From: Clostridia bacterium
GTDB taxonomy: Bacteria; Bacillota; Clostridia; Oscillospirales; CAG-272
DNA length: 45,246 bases
Assembly: GCA_017466625.1 (NCBI GenBank)
Contig: JAFTTT010000047.1
Location: 1 to 45,246, forward strand
Direction of reading: 5' to 3'
In this document: one piece after another, positions 3 through 6,763 of the stretch
How positions within the stretch are numbered: the first letter of the stretch is position 1
How the letters are laid out: each line of letters begins with the position of its first letter
Translations under genes and position numbers: made by a program
Notes under the pieces: model-generated
Told to the model about the DNA's origin: nothing
What the model saw: the letters and a program-made list of their open reading frames with translations, nothing else
Database searches by the model: none

Positions 3-137
3 AAGAATTTTGAAATGCCTACCCTGACCACGGTAGTATTTGAAAACGAAGACGTTATTACAAGCTCCGGAGTACTTAACTATCTCTTCAGCTTCGGAAG
101 AAACGCGCTTCCCGCGCTTAATCCTTTCGGAGAGTAA
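3..137 (+). CDS. short RiPP-like precursor peptide, probably 5'-truncated (KNFEMPTLTTVVFENEDVITSSGVLNYLFSFGRNALPALNPFGE)
   Basis: Hand-translated open frame from base 3 to tandem TAA TAA (135-140). Has an (F/Y)xxPxL motif plus EDVITS, is followed by a strong terminator and lies upstream of a PqqD/peptidase operon. In-frame ATG at 15, but the true start is probably just outside the window. Confidence 0.7.
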   Translation, partial: KNFEMPTLTTVVFENEDVITSSGVLNYLFSFGRNALPALNPFGE

Positions 138-148
138 TAACAAATAGG

Positions 149-178
149 AAAAGCACCTGCTTCGGCAGGTGCTTTTTT
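149..178 (+). terminator. intrinsic terminator
   Basis: AAAAGCACCTGC-TTCG-GCAGGTGCTTTTTT; perfect stem, UUCG loop, U tract. Confidence 0.9.
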
Positions 179-257
179 GCGTATGGCGGCGATATTACTT
201 GTACGTTTACAATGTTGCACTTTTTTTATTTACTCTATTGTTTATTTTATTTTGCTG

Positions 258-266
258 TGTTATAAT
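258..266 (+). promoter_or_regulatory. extended -10 promoter (TGnTATAAT)
   Basis: TGTTATAAT about 30 bp upstream of the 296 ATG in an AT-rich spacer. Confidence 0.5.
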
Positions 267-295
267 AACTTATAAAGAATTAAAATGGTGGTATT

Positions 296-1000
296 ATGGA
301 GTTTTGCGTCTCATTGGCGGGCATACCTGTCCGCGTCGTACACAAATATGAGCATATACGCGCATTATGCGACGGATATCTTACCGACGAGGAACCGATC
401 ATTACCGTTTCCGCTACCGACGAGGAGATAGAGGCGGAAAGTGCGATAAACAACGGCGAATATCCGCTCCCGATATGTGAGGGAACCTGTATTCACCGCG
501 CCGCAACAAATGCGCTCGTGAAGCACGGAGTCATTCTGATACATTCGGCGGTAGTAACCGTTGACGGTGAGGCGTACGTGTTTATGGCAAAGAGCGGCGT
601 CGGAAAATCGACGCACATCGGGCTTTGGCAAAAGGTGTTCGGCGACCGCGCCGTCGTTCTTAACGGCGATAAGCCGTATTTCACCTACGAAAACGGGACT
701 TTGACCGCACACGGCACGCCCTGGCGCGGAAAGGAATTCCTCGGCTGCAACATGAAGGCACCCGTTCGCGGAATTTGCATACTGCACCGAGGAGTTGAAA
801 ACGAGATCATGCCTGCAACGTCATCAGACGCCGTCGGGCAGATATTCCATCAGGTGCTTCTCCCGAGAGACGGTGACGACCTTGCCGTTTTCATGGGCAT
901 GCTGGATAAGATAATAAAGAACGTGCCTATTTATAACCTTTACTGCAATATGGAAGACGACGCCGCGCGCGTCGCGTATAACGGAATGAAGGGGAACTGA
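296..1000 (+). CDS. HPr-kinase-like P-loop protein (ScmC / HPr-rel-like)
   Basis: IHSAVV, Walker A AKSGVGKST, LNGDKP and GTPWRG motifs. Confidence 0.8.
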   Translation: MEFCVSLAGIPVRVVHKYEHIRALCDGYLTDEEPIITVSATDEEIEAESAINNGEYPLPICEGTCIHRAATNALVKHGVILIHSAVVTVDGEAYVFMAKSGVGKSTHIGLWQKVFGDRAVVLNGDKPYFTYENGTLTAHGTPWRGKEFLGCNMKAPVRGICILHRGVENEIMPATSSDAVGQIFHQVLLPRDGDDLAVFMGMLDKIIKNVPIYNLYCNMEDDAARVAYNGMKGN

Positions 1001-1001
1001 T

Positions 1002-1268
1002 ATGAAGATCAAAGAGGGATTTGTTTTGCACTCTGTCGGAGACGAGAACGTAGTCGTTGCGATCGGAAAGATGACGACGAAGTTCCGCGGAATGATACGG
1101 CTCAACTCAACGGGCGCGTTCATCTTCCGCCAGCTCGAAAAGGAGACCGACGAAAAGGGCGTGATCGACGCGCTGATCGCCGAATACGGCATTGACGAAG
1201 CAACGGCTTCGACTGCCGCAAGCGGCTTTATCGCGCAGCTCAAGGACGCGGGTGTACTCGATATATGA
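1002..1268 (+). CDS. PqqD family protein (RiPP recognition element)
   Basis: 88 aa; MKIKEGFVL..VG, LNSTGAFI, L..EY.ID and FIAQL...G.L pattern. Confidence 0.88.
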   Translation: MKIKEGFVLHSVGDENVVVAIGKMTTKFRGMIRLNSTGAFIFRQLEKETDEKGVIDALIAEYGIDEATASTAASGFIAQLKDAGVLDI

Positions 1269-1729
1269 CCGATAATTTCAGCGCAGAAACGAAGCGAACG
1301 ACCGTGAGGGAGGAGCTTGAAAACGGCAGAAGCGTGACGTTTTTCACCGTCGGATGCTCAATGCAGCCGCTCCTTTTCGAGCGCCAGACGCACGTTATGC
1401 TCTCTCAGATAAAGGACGGCGTCAAGAAGTACGACATCGTTCTTTACATTCGCCCCGACGGCACGCACGTTTTGCATAGATGCGTCAAGGTAGAGGACGG
1501 CTACTGCCTTACGCGCGGAGATAATACGTATTATCTTGAGCGCGTTGAAAACAGCACGATAATAGGCGTAGTTACGCATATTTACCGAAAGGGTAAAATG
1601 ATAGACGTAAACAAGAACGGCGCTTACCGTTTTTATTCGGTCGTTTGGAACGCAACTTATCACGTAAGACACTTTATTTTAAGAGCAGGACGGAAGATCA
1701 GAAAATGGATGAGAAAATCAAAAAAATAG
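1265..1729 (+). CDS. S24/S26 family peptidase without N-terminal membrane anchor
   Basis: GCSMQP catalytic Ser box, HR and GDN motifs; ATGA overlap with the PqqD gene. Confidence 0.85.
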   Translation: MTDNFSAETKRTTVREELENGRSVTFFTVGCSMQPLLFERQTHVMLSQIKDGVKKYDIVLYIRPDGTHVLHRCVKVEDGYCLTRGDNTYYLERVENSTIIGVVTHIYRKGKMIDVNKNGAYRFYSVVWNATYHVRHFILRAGRKIRKWMRKSKK

Positions 1730-2868
1730 ACGCCGCCTGTGATATGCTTCGGCTTTGCGCCCTGGCTCTTACGGGACGCGGCGGCGATAAGGTCAATAGG
1801 AGCACAGTGTCGCTTTACGGGATCTATCACGTAAGCGCGTATAACGGACTTGCGGCGCTCGTAAGCGAGGGGATCGACAAGCTCGGAGTCGAAAGAACCG
1901 AGGAAAACGCTCCCGTTCTCGACGCATTCGCGCAAACGCGCGCAATGTCTATCCGTAAAAACATTCTGCTTGATGCCGAGCGCGAGACGATCTTGTCGCA
2001 TCTTGAGGAAAAGGGAATATGGTACATGCCGCTCAAGGGCGCCATACTCAAGGATATGTACCCGAAGCTCGGACTTCGCCAGATGTCGGATAACGACATT
2101 CTTTTCGACGGTGAATACCGCGAATATATCAGAGACTATTTCGTTTCGCAGGGATATACGATCAGTCAGTACGAGGTCGATTTCCACGACGTCTATCACA
2201 AGGAGCCGATATTCAATTACGAGATGCACGTCGAGCTTTACAGCGAGGTAAGAACGCTGCTTCACAAGTATTATCAGAACGTGAAGGACCGTCTTATCAA
2301 GGACGACGACCGCGAGTACGGGTATCATTTTACCGACGAGGATTTTTATATCTACCTCGTCCTTCACGCCTATAAGCACTTCACTTTCAGCGAAACGATA
2401 GGTGCGAAGCACCTCGTTGACGTTTACGTTTATCTGAACAAGAAGCCGGAGCTTGACTTTGCATATATTGAAAGGGAGCTTCGGAAGATCAAGGTGTGGA
2501 AGTTCGAGCGCGACTGCCGTGCGCTCGTAAACGAGATATTCGATGATCCGGAAAGCTTCGATATAGCAAACCTTTCGGACGATAACAGAAGACTTCTTGA
2601 GGACTTTATGCTCAATATGCTGAATGCCACCGAGGACGGCAGGATCGAAAACGGTATTCGAAAGAAGGGCAAATTCGGCTACATTATGAGCAGACTTTTC
2701 CCGAGCATTGAGAATATGAGAAACTACAGACCGTTTTTCGCAAAATGGTATCTGTTGCCGTTTGGCTGGATATACAGAGCGTTCGATATTCTCTTTACCC
2801 GTCTCGGAAAGAGCATAAAGGAGCTGAAGGCGATCGCCAAAACGAAGCAGGACAAAGACGAAAAATAA
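1705..2868 (+). CDS. nucleotidyltransferase family protein (NTP_transf_5-like)
   Basis: PLKG..L...Y....R.MSDNDIL, EMH, H..KH and D motifs; start placed at MDEKIKK (1705). Confidence 0.85.
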   Translation: MDEKIKKIDAACDMLRLCALALTGRGGDKVNRSTVSLYGIYHVSAYNGLAALVSEGIDKLGVERTEENAPVLDAFAQTRAMSIRKNILLDAERETILSHLEEKGIWYMPLKGAILKDMYPKLGLRQMSDNDILFDGEYREYIRDYFVSQGYTISQYEVDFHDVYHKEPIFNYEMHVELYSEVRTLLHKYYQNVKDRLIKDDDREYGYHFTDEDFYIYLVLHAYKHFTFSETIGAKHLVDVYVYLNKKPELDFAYIERELRKIKVWKFERDCRALVNEIFDDPESFDIANLSDDNRRLLEDFMLNMLNATEDGRIENGIRKKGKFGYIMSRLFPSIENMRNYRPFFAKWYLLPFGWIYRAFDILFTRLGKSIKELKAIAKTKQDKDEK

Positions 2869-2898
2869 AAAGATCCGCGAGTTATCGCGGATCTTTTT
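2867..2898. terminator. bidirectional terminator
   Basis: AAAAAGATCCGCGA-GTTA-TCGCGGATCTTTTT between convergent genes. Confidence 0.9.
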
Positions 2899-2901
2899 GC
2901 T

Positions 2902-3840
2902 TCAGAAGTGTCCCTTTTCGGTAGCTTCGTTTAAGAAGTAGGAAAGCTCTTTTTTGCATCTTTCCTCGTCGACGACGAAGCTCATACCGTGAGTGGCGTT
3001 TTCAACGCTTACGAGACGGCTGTTTTCGGGACGGGAATTGTACGCAAGAACGCTCATTTCGTGCGGAACGAAGTCGTCGGCGAGTCCGTGTACGAACAGA
3101 ATCGGAAGCTTACTTTTTTTGACGGCATCTATAGTCGACGCCTCCTTGAGTCCGAAGCCGCAAAGTAGCTTGACGGTCGGTATCATGAGGTAAAGAAGCG
3201 GAAATTTCGGAATGTGCATATCGCGTCTCGCGACCTCGGTCACGATGTCCCAGGGAGAGGTGAAGCCGCAGTCGGCGATTACGCCCTTGACGTTATCGGG
3301 GAGATCGAGCCCCGACGCCATGAGGACCGTCGTAGCACCCATCGAGAGACCGTCGAGAATGATCTTTATGCCGTCTCCGAAGGCGGAAATGAGGTAATTA
3401 CACCAGGAAAGCGCGTCGTAGCGCTCCTTTACGCCGAATGTTATCCATTTGCCCTCGCTCCCGCCGTGCGCGCGCTGATCGACCGAAAGAACGTTGTATC
3501 CCTGGCTCATAAAGAAGCCCATCGCACATGTGAAATCCTCACCCGACGAGCGGTAGCCGTGCATACAGATTATGTATTTGTTCGTTTCACCCTCGGCACG
3601 GTATAGCCGACCGACGAGGTGCAGACCGTCGTGCGAGGTTATCGAGTGCTTCTCGAACGGCATATTTGCAAGCTCGTTCTTGCCTTCCTCAATGCGGTCA
3701 AGCTGGCCGGGGCTGTCCTTTAGGACCTCGTCGAGCTCGTATACCTTTCCGCCGCGCGCAAAGGTTTTGTTTGCAAAATAGCATAAAACTGTTGCCGCGA
3801 TCACCGGAATCGCGGCGATTACAATTATCGCTGTAACCAT
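2902..3840 (-). CDS. membrane-anchored alpha/beta hydrolase
   Basis: N-terminal TM segment, HGY, GLSMG nucleophile, HG..DDFVP, HG. Confidence 0.88.
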   Translation of the reverse strand: MVTAIIVIAAIPVIAATVLCYFANKTFARGGKVYELDEVLKDSPGQLDRIEEGKNELANMPFEKHSITSHDGLHLVGRLYRAEGETNKYIICMHGYRSSGEDFTCAMGFFMSQGYNVLSVDQRAHGGSEGKWITFGVKERYDALSWCNYLISAFGDGIKIILDGLSMGATTVLMASGLDLPDNVKGVIADCGFTSPWDIVTEVARRDMHIPKFPLLYLMIPTVKLLCGFGLKEASTIDAVKKSKLPILFVHGLADDFVPHEMSVLAYNSRPENSRLVSVENATHGMSFVVDEERCKKELSYFLNEATEKGHF

Positions 3841-3973
3841 AATTTGCCTCGTAAAATTTGATAACCTAATTTTATCACACACATAATTATTTTGCAAGGA
3901 CGTAATTTCCTATTTACTAAACTTTAACAATGTGTTATACTGAACTTACATCAAAAAAGGAACAGGGAAAGAT

Positions 3974-4363
3974 ATGTTTTTTGAAATAAAGGACGAAATG
4001 CTGCTTTCGGGTACCTCGCTTGCGTATCTCGGCGATGCGGTCTTTGAGCTGATAACGAGACAATACTTGCTTTCAACCGGTGTGACCGACGTCGGAAAGC
4101 TCAATAAAATGGCGCTATCGTTCGTTCGCGCGACCGCTCAAAGCGACGCGGTCGAAAGGATGCTTCCGCATCTTAGTGAGGAGGAAACGCAGATATATAA
4201 GCGCGGCAGAAACGCAAACGGTATTTCGATCCCGAAAAGCGCCTCTGCACCGCAGTACCGCCGCGCAACAGGGCTTGAAGCGCTCTTCGCTCACCTCTAC
4301 GCGCAGGGTAAAAAGGAACGTCTCCGCGAGCTGTTTATAATAGGATTTTGCTCTGAGGAATAA
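3974..4363 (+). CDS. mrnC: Mini-ribonuclease III
   Basis: LAYLGDAVFEL, KRGRNA, YRRATGLEAL. Confidence 0.92.
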   Translation: MFFEIKDEMLLSGTSLAYLGDAVFELITRQYLLSTGVTDVGKLNKMALSFVRATAQSDAVERMLPHLSEEETQIYKRGRNANGISIPKSASAPQYRRATGLEALFAHLYAQGKKERLRELFIIGFCSEE

Positions 4364-4364
4364 T

Positions 4365-4394
4365 AAAAATCCGCCCGTTTGGGCGGATTTTTTT
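4365..4394. terminator. bidirectional terminator
   Basis: AAAAATCCGCCC-GTTT-GGGCGGATTTTTTT. Confidence 0.88.
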
Positions 4395-4585
4395 CATTTG
4401 CACATATCGGTCATCATATTCTTCATCCTGCAGCCGAGCTCCTTGCAGCGACCTTGGTCGAAGCCGTAGCAGCGCCCGAGGAAGCCCTTTTGCCCTGCGC
4501 AAGGCGTTACGGTTATGATGCCGAGAATGACCGCAAGAAAGGCGATCATCATCAATATCTTGAGTTCAATACATAAAGTTTTCAT
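4394..4585 (-). CDS. small single-TM hypothetical protein downstream of spoIIP
   Basis: ATG 3 bp after the spoIIP stop; ends at the terminator; one hydrophobic helix. Confidence 0.55.
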   Translation of the reverse strand: MKTLCIELKILMMIAFLAVILGIITVTPCAGQKGFLGRCYGFDQGRCKELGCRMKNMMTDMCK

Positions 4586-4588
4586 TTT

Positions 4589-5692
4589 TTACTCCCCGTA
4601 AAGCGGAACGCCCGACAGTATCATTCCGCTTAAAACCTCACCCAAGATCTCCGTCGCCGCCTTTGCCTCGGCGAGGGTATTCACACAGGTGCCGACCTCG
4701 ATAAGCGCTCCGATGGGAGCGTAATGCTGATTATAGGCAGACCGTCTTATAGACATGGGCCTTGCTATATTGTTGAGTCGGCTTATGAGAAAATGTTGGG
4801 CATTTACGGCGAAAGAGAGATTTCTCCGCCAGCTCTTGTTCGCGGCTCCGGCTTCATCGGTGCCGACGACGAACATAAGCTGCGCTGTCGGCGTGCTTTC
4901 GTCGTATGTAAGGGTCTTGTAGACGACGCTTTCACCAACGAGGGCGTCGCGGTGTATGTCAAAGGCGTACTTTATCGACGGATATTTTTTAAGATATTCC
5001 TTGACGCTTTTTGCGGAATTCGTATAGGCGGTGTTGTAGGAGCCGTTATCGTGCATCGTTTCGTCGTGAACGGTCGGAATGCCGTTTGCGTTAAGTATGT
5101 CAGCAAGGTACTTGCCGACGGCAACGACGTTTTTGCTCGTATCGGTCGAGCGGGGAAGATTCGAGGCGGAATAGGAGACCTTGCCCTCCTCGGCGTAGCC
5201 CTCTGTTCCGTGAGTGTGATATATGAGAACGAGCGGCTGTGACATATCAAATTCGTTTTTTGATGCTTCAAGCGACGCGCCGTAGGCGGTCAGAAAGTCG
5301 GATATGCTTATGTCGTAGGCGGTCTTGTTTTTGAAATATATCTGATCGGGCATCGGATTTTTGCTCAGATCTGTGCTCGAAATTTTAAGCTCGCCCTTGG
5401 GGACGGTTACCGTTTCATCGGCAAATATCGTGTCGTAAATACCGAGACCGAGCGGATATTCGCGCTCGAAAATGATGTCGCGGAAGGCAGGCGGAAGCTC
5501 CTCGGCTCCCGCTTCAAGCTCATCGAGTGTGGGCTCTTTGCTTTCGGGCGAAAAGGCGAAAAGCCGATCAAAAGAGCTGTAGACCATTATAAATACGGCG
5601 AGAAGCAGGATCGCCGCCTTTGCGCAGAGGTCAAAAACCACTCCGAAATTAACTTTTTTGCCGAGCACGGCAGACAGATTTATTTTTTGCAT
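4589..5692 (-). CDS. spoIIP: stage II sporulation protein P
   Basis: IYHTHGTE, DIHRDA, YNQH and LIEVG motifs; downstream of gpr. Confidence 0.93.
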   Translation of the reverse strand: MQKINLSAVLGKKVNFGVVFDLCAKAAILLLAVFIMVYSSFDRLFAFSPESKEPTLDELEAGAEELPPAFRDIIFEREYPLGLGIYDTIFADETVTVPKGELKISSTDLSKNPMPDQIYFKNKTAYDISISDFLTAYGASLEASKNEFDMSQPLVLIYHTHGTEGYAEEGKVSYSASNLPRSTDTSKNVVAVGKYLADILNANGIPTVHDETMHDNGSYNTAYTNSAKSVKEYLKKYPSIKYAFDIHRDALVGESVVYKTLTYDESTPTAQLMFVVGTDEAGAANKSWRRNLSFAVNAQHFLISRLNNIARPMSIRRSAYNQHYAPIGALIEVGTCVNTLAEAKAATEILGEVLSGMILSGVPLYGE

Positions 5693-5736
5693 AACTGCCC
5701 TCCTTTTTTTATAATTGTATTTAGGAGGGAAGCTTT

Positions 5737-6618
5737 TTATACCGTCAAGGCGACGTTTATCGCCCGCGATATGAGCTTGGACGTTTCGCTTATCACGGTG
5801 TCTGCGTCCTTCAGCGTCACGAAAAAGCTTTTTCCGTTCTCAAGCTCCTTTTCGAGCGGCTCCGAGATATCTGTAACTCCGGCACGCTCAAGGACGTTGA
5901 ATACGAGCGTCGATGAATCAACGACGGTCGGAACGCCGATCGATATTACGGGAACGCCGAGCGTCTGACGGTCAACGGCGCTTCTTCGGTTGCCGATGCC
6001 CGAGCCGGGCATGATGCCGGTGTTCGATATCTGCACGGTCGTTCCGAGGCGGTCAACGCTTTTTGACGCGAGAGCGTCGACGGCAATTACCGCCGAAGCT
6101 CCGGAAGCGCGCACGGCACCGAGAACGATATCGGACGCCTCAAGCCCCGTTTCGGCGCTTACACCGGGCGAAAGCGCACAGGTGCAGAGGGATCCGAGCT
6201 TGTCAAAAAGCTCGGGATCGCTTTCCTTTACGTGTCGGTTTGCCGTTATGCCCTTGACGGTAAGAGGGCCGACTGCGTCGGAGATCATGTGACGGTTTCC
6301 GAGTCCGACGACGAGAACGGTATTTACGTCGCCGAATGAATAGAGAAGCGCTTTTATCTCCTCGCCTATCGCAAGCGCCGTTTTCCTTTGATCCTCGTCG
6401 CAAAGGAGCCATATCTTCCCGACCGAAAAGGTCAAATACCGTCCTATCGGCTTGTTAAGCAGCGACGCGCCTTCTTCGTTCAGAATAGATATTTCGGTAA
6501 CGGGAACGCCGTACCTTTCATATTCGCGAGCCGAAATTCCGCGGTAAGCGCCGTTTTCCTCATTCGGACACGCTTCAAGCGCCATATCTGTTCTTACGTA
6601 TTTCCGAAAACGGTCCAT
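5737..6618 (-). CDS. gpr: GPR germination endopeptidase
   Basis: RTDMALEA, VGLGN...SDAVGP, AVDALA, PGSGIGN, IGVPTVVD. Confidence 0.93.
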   Translation of the reverse strand: MDRFRKYVRTDMALEACPNEENGAYRGISAREYERYGVPVTEISILNEEGASLLNKPIGRYLTFSVGKIWLLCDEDQRKTALAIGEEIKALLYSFGDVNTVLVVGLGNRHMISDAVGPLTVKGITANRHVKESDPELFDKLGSLCTCALSPGVSAETGLEASDIVLGAVRASGASAVIAVDALASKSVDRLGTTVQISNTGIMPGSGIGNRRSAVDRQTLGVPVISIGVPTVVDSSTLVFNVLERAGVTDISEPLEKELENGKSFFVTLKDADTVISETSKLISRAINVALTV

Positions 6619-6650
6619 TTTGCTTTCTCCCGAGAAGTGCTTTTTGATGT

Positions 6651-6679
6651 TAGTATTTCGCGGACTGAGAAAATAATGC
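6651..6679 (-). promoter_or_regulatory. candidate forespore (SigF/SigG-type) promoter of gpr
   Basis: minus strand GCATT-N17-AATACTA; gpr is SigF/SigG-controlled in Bacillus. Confidence 0.4.
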
Positions 6680-6763
6680 ATGACAAAATGCACAAAAAAA
6701 TAAATCTCGCGTTGTACAAACAGCCAAAACTTGGGTTTTCAAAAAAATAGCTCGAAAATGTTG

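Follow-up and report, generated by a model that had tools for sequence, protein, structure and literature searches.

A probable LPP-type maturation cassette and a dispersed family of lppA-like peptide genes in a clostridial genome

Closest Described Systems

The linear polyphosphorylated peptides (LPPs) are a class of RiPPs (peptides made on the ribosome and modified after translation) described in May 2026 from the lppA-K-B-S-D-N cluster of Paenibacillus alginolyticus DSM5050 (Popov et al., Nat Commun 2026; PMC13381572). A similar gene set lies at the start of the stretch of DNA analysed here, hereafter the window (45,246 nucleotides, contig JAFTTT010000047.1 of the Clostridia bacterium assembly GCA_017466625.1). 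Positions 296-2868 probably hold an LPP-type maturation cassette, lppK-lppB-lppS-lppN, and positions 3-137 one of the ten lppA-like precursor genes that it would serve; this reading is given a probability of roughly 80%.

In the LPP cluster, lppK encodes an HprK-like kinase, lppB a RiPP recognition element (RRE), lppS a signal peptidase I (SpI) of the archaeal type with catalytic residues S29, H68 and D93, lppD an MsbA-like protein and lppN a nucleoside triphosphate (NTP) transferase. The precursor LppA carries the leader motif YxxPxVLxHQxIxFETxxS, followed by a variable C-terminus. Biochemical proof was given that the SpI-like peptidase cleaves LppA after T-1 in an RRE-dependent manner and that the HprK-like kinase polyphosphorylates S3, near the cleavage site; the precursor lacking phosphorylation is poorly cut. 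Residue D70 of LppB hydrogen-bonds the leader Tyr, while N33 holds the Pro kink. Deletion of lppN caused no detectable change and no NTP transferase activity was detected. According to the authors, who worked with a set of 199 peptidases, the final product and the biological role are unknown (PMC13381572). A literature search found no further paper on LPPs in the library searched. An HprK-like kinase, a PqqD protein and a PF14907 protein are also standard accessories of lasso peptide clusters in Firmicutes (PMC7533575).

The Cassette and the Peptide Gene of the Window

The features that make up the locus are as follows.

3..137, plus strand: lppA-like precursor peptide gene; it retains 44 of its 46 codons and the stop codon, the 5' end being cut.
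149..176: hairpin of 12 pairs, its 3' arm ending in a T run; terminator of the peptide transcription unit.
296..1000, plus strand: lppK-like P-loop peptide kinase of the HprK/PEPCK fold, 234 amino acids (aa), assigned from NCBIfam, alignment and model.
1002..1268, plus strand: lppB-like discrete PqqD-type RRE, 88 aa (PqqD, E 8.7e-15).
1265..1729, plus strand: lppS-like soluble homologue of archaeal/ER (endoplasmic reticulum)-type signal peptidase I, 154 aa.
1705..2868, plus strand: lppN-like PF14907 (NTP_transf_5) protein, 387 aa from the ATG at 1705 (E 1.6e-37).
2867..2898: hairpin of 14 pairs, closing the cassette and shared with the convergent alpha/beta-hydrolase gene.

The four cassette genes are tightly packed, successive junctions being a 1-base gap, a 4-base overlap (PqqD and peptidase genes) and a 25-base overlap. 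The start of the lppN-like gene at ATG 1705 is favoured over TTG 1645 by comparison with a closely related locus (L102; L numbers designate loci, C numbers contigs and G numbers genomes of the same family, G000 being the host genome).

The kinase has no Pfam match, and its NCBIfam matches are weak and far below the cut-offs: ScmC of the SynChlorMet cassette (TIGR04249, E 5.5e-5, 22.6 bits for a cut-off of 125 bits) and HprK_rel_A of the HPr-rel-A system (TIGR04352, E 7.8e-4, 18.6 bits for a cut-off of 200 bits). No radical SAM gene is included among the cassette genes. The P-loop residues S100, G101, G103, K104 and T106 are invariant in all 21 sequences of an alignment of kinase orthologues, as is an NGDKP motif. 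The AlphaFold model (pLDDT, predicted local distance difference test, 96.1; pTM, predicted template modelling score, 0.91) matches HprK/P (E 3.5e-6, probability 1.0) and PEP carboxykinase.

In the same way, the peptidase gives only a weak match to archaeal-type signal peptidase I (TIGR02228, E 8.7e-5), and its model (pLDDT 90.6) matches SpsB, human SEC11A/C and LexA. All 16 orthologues aligned keep the same eight residues (G30, S32, M33, H71, R72, G85, D86 and E92). S32 and H71 are 39 residues apart, exactly as S29 and H68 of LppS, and either of the acidic residues D86 and E92 could correspond to D93 of LppS. The protein carries one helix at its N-terminus and a second, basic and amphipathic, at its C-terminus, without signal anchor.

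The initial annotation of this DNA had described a short peptide gene and four coupled genes at 3-2868, and all five elements are confirmed there. The profile scans that it called for gave clear matches for PqqD and NTP_transf_5 and weak ones for the peptidase and the kinase. Its description of the system as undescribed has to be withdrawn, the same gene set having been published as LPP (PMC13381572).

A Multi-Copy Peptide Family

The frame at 3..137, whose first codons are lost where the contig starts, translates as KNFEMPTLTTVVFENEDVITSSGVLNYLFSFGRNALPALNPFGE (KNFEMPTL...NPFGE). Intact paralogues encode a 46-aa product that starts with MEKNFEM and is preceded by a ribosome binding site. The leader of the window peptide is read as (M-E-)K-N-F-E-M-P-T-L-T-T-V-V-F-E-N-E-D-V-I-T and its predicted core as S-S-G-V-L-N-Y-L-F-S-F-G-R-N-A-L-P-A-L-N-P-F-G-E.

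Bases 1-180 belong to a multi-copy repeat found at six further sites of the genome with 87-100% identity. By tblastn and profile searches, ten peptide paralogues were identified in this 1.56-Mb genome: seven near-identical copies (C39, the window contig, C92, C46, C68, C12, C50 and C62) and three divergent ones (C78, C11 and C30). Every paralogue with an assembled 5' end has an AGGAG-type ribosome binding site and an ATG, and an equivalent terminator hairpin follows all ten. In the window, an AT-rich spacer of 119 bp separates this hairpin from the kinase gene. The peptide gene therefore ends its own transcription unit and is not translationally coupled to the cassette.

An alignment of 37 family sequences yields the consensus M-x-x-x-(Y/F)-x-x-P-E-x-E-x-x-x-F-E-x-E-D-V-I-T-x-S, after which the tail varies and is mostly acidic. 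All 37 sequences have D19 and S24; P8, I21 and T22 reach at least 90%, and the leader-core junction motif is EDVITxS. The protein database holds 100 relatives of 30-66 aa, whose sole label anywhere is "hypothetical protein", with no functional name. A full-text literature search for EDVIT motif strings and variants returned unrelated words only. Searched against PDB chains, the peptide profile retrieved no LppA leader chain, the sole match being a chance one (E 0.47).

Two related observations come from other hosts. At L069 (1605-1700, G065:C38), a 19-codon mini-open reading frame (ORF), MKEHYVTPDEIELPEIPLE, lies between an lppA-like gene and lppK and resembles the leader start joined to the tail motif. 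A precursor subtype with Cys-rich cores occurs directly after lppS, or 1.8 kb after it, at L106, L107 and L108, in hosts labelled Eubacteriales, Acetatifactor and Candidatus Faecalibacterium gallistercoris. In this subtype, Ala replaces the leader Pro (Y-x-x-A-E-A-E-V-I-L-F-D-N-S-D-V-I-T-T-S-G...).

Co-Distribution of Kinase and Peptide

The distribution of both genes was surveyed in 100 other genomes of the same family, spanning 97 genera. A kinase match at E<=0.001 was obtained in 58 of them, and 51 were kept as strong. Those set aside are six genomes whose best kinase match is weaker than 1e-20, partial and within HprK-size frames, plus G089 (2.1e-23, partial, in a 308-aa frame). The 37-sequence peptide profile matched 39 genomes at E<=0.01. 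A strong kinase is present in 37 of these 39 peptide-bearing genomes, against 14 of the 61 peptide-less ones and 51 of 100 overall (table 37/14/2/47; Fisher p 1.8e-13, a value overstated since the genomes are related). The two peptide-bearing genomes without strong kinase are G089 and G095, the match of the latter (E 0.0016) lying inside a 627-aa frame. Multiple copies are also seen outside the host, with up to 12, 9 and 7 peptide matches (G003, G099 and G012, respectively).

When species genomes at large were scanned with the kinase alignment, more than 582 loci matched. The 80 best, kept for analysis, stem from Clostridia of gut and rumen (Eubacteriales, Oscillospiraceae, Acutalibacteraceae, Ruminococcus flavefaciens, Lachnospiraceae). 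The triad of kinase, RRE and peptidase genes (K-B-S) is found in 15/20 family loci and 53/80 wider loci, a recurrence beyond chance. The NTP transferase gene stands beside the triad in only 3/20 and 16/80 loci, respectively.

Adjacency of peptide and cassette genes is also recurrent. A peptide gene lies at most about 1.5 kb upstream of the kinase gene in six of the 51 kinase-bearing family genomes (G024, G065, G058, G080, G020 and G051) and within 7 kb of the kinase in 14 of the 80 wider loci. It abuts the kinase gene in L147 and L174 and the peptidase gene, which it follows, in L106 and L108.

The closest relatives of the cassette, L102-L104, have kinases 84-85% identical to that of the window and align with it from about 215 to 2878. 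In L103 and L104, a secreted-protein gene (824 or 999 aa) and then a peptide gene come directly downstream of lppN; in L102, glycosyltransferase genes are found there instead. The differing position of the peptide suggests that a module made of a big protein gene plus a peptide gene moves around the cassette. The initial annotation had taken the peptide as the private precursor of the cluster, a view that does not hold for one of ten dispersed paralogues.

Two other features of the kinase loci were noted. Among the 80 best, L142 and L154 belong to metagenome-assembled genomes (MAGs) labelled Bacteroidales and Prevotellaceae, with the gene order S-B-K or B-K, and may reflect horizontal transfer or binning errors. 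A membrane protein of about 220 aa, ending in ...YVRDYLVxNRxYLxxKMxxYVxxNIxKF, recurs directly upstream of lppK (L044, L109, L110, L115, L119, L137 and L145) and may be a further component of the system.

Covariation of the RRE with the Leader

In the RRE of the window, N35 is conserved and position 72 is Ala, where most relatives have Asp. Both positions are 37 residues apart, like N33 and D70 of LppB. Among 84 RREs, the Asn column holds N in 79 and the Asp column D in 63. An RRE with Asp accompanies a leader with Tyr in 17 genomes, and a non-Asp RRE (A, N or S) accompanies a Phe leader in six, from four lineages (G000, L103, L104, L158, L155 and G077). There is one exception with Asp and Phe (G043) and none with non-Asp and Tyr (Fisher p 5e-5, likewise overstated by kinship). 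The count omits L121/L041, whose column is Glu and whose peptide match is weak (E 5e-3) and without the aromatic residue. This covariation of Asp/Tyr and Ala/Phe is the strongest sign that the peptides are the RRE's own ligands.

The co-folding of peptide and PqqD protein that the initial annotation had proposed gave a score of 0.37, against 0.08 for the best of three controls, with at least 80% of contacts agreeing between runs and a partner pLDDT of at least 51. In calibration, 58 of the 80 solved complexes passed the mark, as did 2 of 110 mismatched pairs; with scores up to 0.60, it was passed by only 7 of the 80 solved complexes and by both mismatches. RRE-leader complexes have already been solved, so this pass may reflect memory or likeness, and it lends weak support to binding.

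Taken together, co-occurrence, repeated adjacency and covariation indicate that the peptide family is very probably the substrate of the cassette. In this respect the initial annotation, which had proposed an RRE-guided peptide-maturation system devoid of cyclase, is upheld. No lasso cyclase or B2 protein was found in the host genome, which is 87% complete.

Proposed Maturation Pathway

Maturation could proceed as follows, by analogy with the Paenibacillus system, which supplies the dependence of cleavage on the RRE, the polyphosphorylation of Ser and the sequence of steps. The LppB-like RRE would bind the N-terminal (F/Y)xxP leader as an added beta-strand. The HprK-like kinase would then phosphorylate, probably repeatedly, a Ser of the junction, predicted to be the invariant Ser24. 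With the peptide presented by the RRE, the soluble Ser/His signal-peptidase homologue would cut after the near-invariant Thr22 (DVIT|xS). A possible role of the PF14907 enzyme is to decorate the phosphate with another group. The product would stay linear because no cyclase exists. The present data show the gene families and their folds, the conservation of catalytic residues, the link of peptide family and cassette across genomes and the covariation of RRE and leader; the exact cut site, the phosphorylated residue, the role of the LppN-like protein and the maturation of all ten paralogues in trans are inferred.

The initial annotation had placed cleavage before phosphorylation. The order published for LPPs is different, phosphorylation coming before cleavage or together with it (PMC13381572). 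The nucleotidylation that the initial annotation also proposed stays conjectural, given that the NTP transferase of the LPP system showed no activity.

Genes for Giant Surface Proteins beside the Peptide Genes

In the host genome, four peptide copies (C46, C50, C11 and C30) come directly behind complete genes for secreted proteins of 1,260 to 1,657 aa, and three others behind a gene of this kind that a contig edge cuts, leaving its 3' end visible. A further copy follows a 146-aa ORF, itself behind an ORF of more than 408 aa, and the two remaining ones are cut by contig ends. A Metallophos domain was detected in five of six large neighbours tested, three of which also have Laminin_G_3. Of 18 peptide genes examined in other genera, 8 come directly after ORFs of at least 860 aa and two more are in operons with such genes; the large neighbours there include GDPD, BspA-LRR, cohesin/dockerin and SLH domains. 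The Metallophos domain was considered as the general partner of the peptides and rejected, other genera showing GDPD, LRR, cohesin/dockerin, SLH or no Pfam domain at all. Since the neighbour domains vary among genera, "large surface protein" is the only description that generalises.

The giant proteins preceding peptide genes often end in a similar helix-like motif (LLRALYDLNEAYR, NLIAATYNYGAATAKFAS, LLEATLTYADSAKAYF, LLNALYQWNVAVANAN). It was seen at L012 (2261-6043), L010 (5567-10540), L011 (2092-5928), L092, L095, L101, L103 and L104, and may be a shared C-terminal module.

A tentative proposal, which is rather doubtful at this stage, is that the LPP-type peptides of gut and rumen Clostridia are dedicated companions of giant surface proteins rather than free-standing natural products. 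Each lppA-like gene would be co-transcribed with the gene of a secreted protein of 1,000-1,700 aa (in the host genome mostly metallophosphoesterase-lectin proteins), one central K-B-S(-N) cassette would mature all copies in trans and the phosphopeptide would act at the cell surface together with its neighbour, the peptide being substrate, regulator or anchor. If true, this would be the first functional lead for a RiPP class of unknown role.

Points against the Assignment and Alternative Explanations

Several observations weigh against the assignment of peptide and cassette to one LPP-type system. No peptide match is present in 14 of the 51 kinase-bearing family genomes. The neighbourhood survey that the initial annotation had suggested did find peptide genes, but 66 of the 80 loci have none nearby, and the closest relatives, L102-L104, have an M23/G5 peptidase gene upstream of the kinase, not a peptide gene. 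The window copy has its own terminator (149-176). Both Fisher tests treat kin as independent and hence overstate. The genome is 87% complete and the contig begins inside the peptide gene, so that genes further upstream are unseen. Searched against the PDB, the RRE profile scores TbiB1 (2.8e-10), PbaB1 (3e-8) and TfuB1 (1.2e-7) above LppB (9x8z, 1.5e-5). No MsbA-like exporter gene is found between or beside the four genes of the window, as would be expected from the LPP cluster, and only 3 of 80 loci have an ABC (ATP-binding cassette)-type ORF at a distance of up to 4 kb from the kinase. Finally, the junction is FExEDVITxS here and xIxFETxxS in LPPs, and the conserved Ser would be at +2 instead of +3 if cleavage follows the Thr.

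Among the alternatives, the one that survives best, although improbable, is that the peptides have nothing to do with the cassette: they would be small partners (chaperone, anchor or regulator) of the giant surface proteins, the window copy having come next to the kinase by an accident of rearrangement. It would account for the location of the peptide genes, all eight paralogues with an assembled 5' flank being behind a secreted-protein gene of the same orientation (one via the 146-aa ORF), as are 8 of the 18 genes examined in other genera behind ORFs of at least 860 aa, and it fits both the terminator of the window copy and the lack of a peptide gene upstream of the kinase in the closest relatives. 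It leaves unexplained why 37 of the 39 genomes with a peptide also have the kinase, compared with 51 of all 100, why adjacency to the kinase or peptidase gene recurs independently in several genera, why Asp or Ala in the RRE covaries with Tyr or Phe in the leader and why the leader motif resembles that of LppA. Both roles are compatible, since the peptide, once matured, could work together with the surface protein.

Slightly less probable still is that the cassette mainly acts on other proteins, such as the small lipoproteins that many relatives encode directly upstream of the kinase, the EDVIT peptides being minor or regulatory ligands. Roughly 12-15 of about 100 loci have a lipoprotein gene that abuts the kinase gene or overlaps with it and, in two genomes, the C-terminal motif of the lipoprotein resembles the C-terminus of the genome's own EDVIT peptide. 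These lipoproteins, however, carry Sec/lipobox signal peptides and no (Y/F)xxP leader; the cassette proteins are without signal peptides. Furthermore, no such lipoprotein gene is present in the window, and the covariation concerns the leader of the peptides.

The small lipoproteins combine a long linker rich in Thr, Ser, Asp and Pro with a short C-terminal motif of aromatic residues and Pro, such as ...DPDGEGWTGFYPL or ...APIELPFIPAG. Their loci include L039 (G096:C97), L063 (G058:C1), L040, L047, L112, L127, L159, L149, L167, L174 and L148. The EDVIT peptides of G096 and L174 end in ...DPDGEGWTDFIPLSSPGR and ...GPIKLPFIPADQS, which resemble the end motif of the lipoproteins.

Lasso macrolactams are closed on an Asp or Glu at positions 7-9. 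That the cassette supplies the tailoring part of a usual lasso cluster of the paeninodin type, with cyclase, B2 and true precursor beyond the contig start or elsewhere, is hardly credible: the accessory nature of HprK-like kinase, PqqD and PF14907 in Firmicutes lasso clusters (PMC7533575), the contig cut at base 1 and the preference of the RRE profile for lasso RREs speak for it, but the 87%-complete host genome has no match above cut-off to the lasso B2 family PF13471 and its only strong Asn_synthase is a glutamine-hydrolysing AsnB starting with MCGICG, PF13471 passes in 1 of 101 family genomes, one that is without the kinase, the syntenic relatives L102-L104, which have the M23 peptidase gene upstream, are free of lasso genes within 7 kb, and the sole acidic residue of the core is its last, none being at positions 7-9.

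One candidate pair of lasso C and B2 proteins, an Asn synthase and its transglutaminase-like neighbour on C58 (L088, G000:C58, 301-3231), was rejected as an MCGICG-type AsnB and a lipoprotein with Ig-like and Transglut_core domains.

Genomic Setting

The window is contig C39, from its base 1, of a genome of 1.56 Mb in 130 contigs. The region beyond the cassette is occupied by the following genes.

2902-6693, downstream of the cassette: alpha/beta hydrolase (minus strand, convergent), mini-RNase III, SpoIIP and germination protease GPR.

The presence of SpoIIP and GPR, among others, downstream of the cassette identifies the host as a spore-forming clostridial bacterium.

Comparison with Known Systems and Significance

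The window and its relatives show that machinery of this type is very frequent among uncultured Clostridia of gut and rumen, with more than 582 loci in one scan and presence in about half of the family genomes, and that it usually acts on precursors encoded elsewhere in the genome. The precursors being systematically hitched to genes for giant surface proteins, the question of the purpose of LPPs becomes concretely testable. Furthermore, the covariation of Asp/Tyr and Ala/Phe extends the published structural rule by which RREs choose their leader.

The arrangement is comparable to that of the prochlorosins, for which many scattered precursor genes with a conserved leader are served in trans by one modification locus. 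Dispersed precursors with a shared leader and a single enzyme locus are common to both. The difference is that seven of the ten copies found here are nearly identical in the core too and that each is tied to a gene for a large secreted protein.

With the paeninodin/pseudomycoidin-type lasso clusters, the cassette shares an HprK-like Ser kinase, an RRE of PqqD type for leaders of the form (Y/W)xxP, and an enzyme of the PF14907 family linked to phosphate decoration (PMC7533575, PMC13381572). In contrast to them, it has an S26 serine leader peptidase, neither macrolactam cyclase nor transglutaminase-like B2, and a core without ring-forming acidic residue.

The likeness to the LPP clusters is the closest. 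The set and order of the enzymes (HprK-like kinase, discrete RRE, soluble archaeal-type SpI, PF14907 NTP transferase) are the same, as are the lack of a cyclase, the 39-residue spacing of the Ser/His dyad of the peptidase and the conserved Asn of the RRE. In both cases the precursor has an N-terminal aromatic-x-x-Pro leader and a conserved Thr/Ser junction. Besides exporter, junction residues and the spacing within the motif, the differences concern the leader aromatic residue, which is Phe here with Ala replacing the Asp of the RRE, an RRE that by sequence is no nearer to LppB than to lasso RREs, and the host, a gut clostridial MAG and not a member of the Bacilli. The window cassette also lies outside a capsule locus, although its relative L102 has glycosyltransferase genes downstream. 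The precursors of 30-56 aa are encoded by ten dispersed copies, mostly behind genes for giant surface proteins, whereas LPP clusters have one to three copies within the cluster. Set against the LPP system as described (PMC13381572), the points of interest here are a clostridial variant whose multi-copy precursors are encoded in trans and coupled to surface proteins, and the covariation of RRE and leader.

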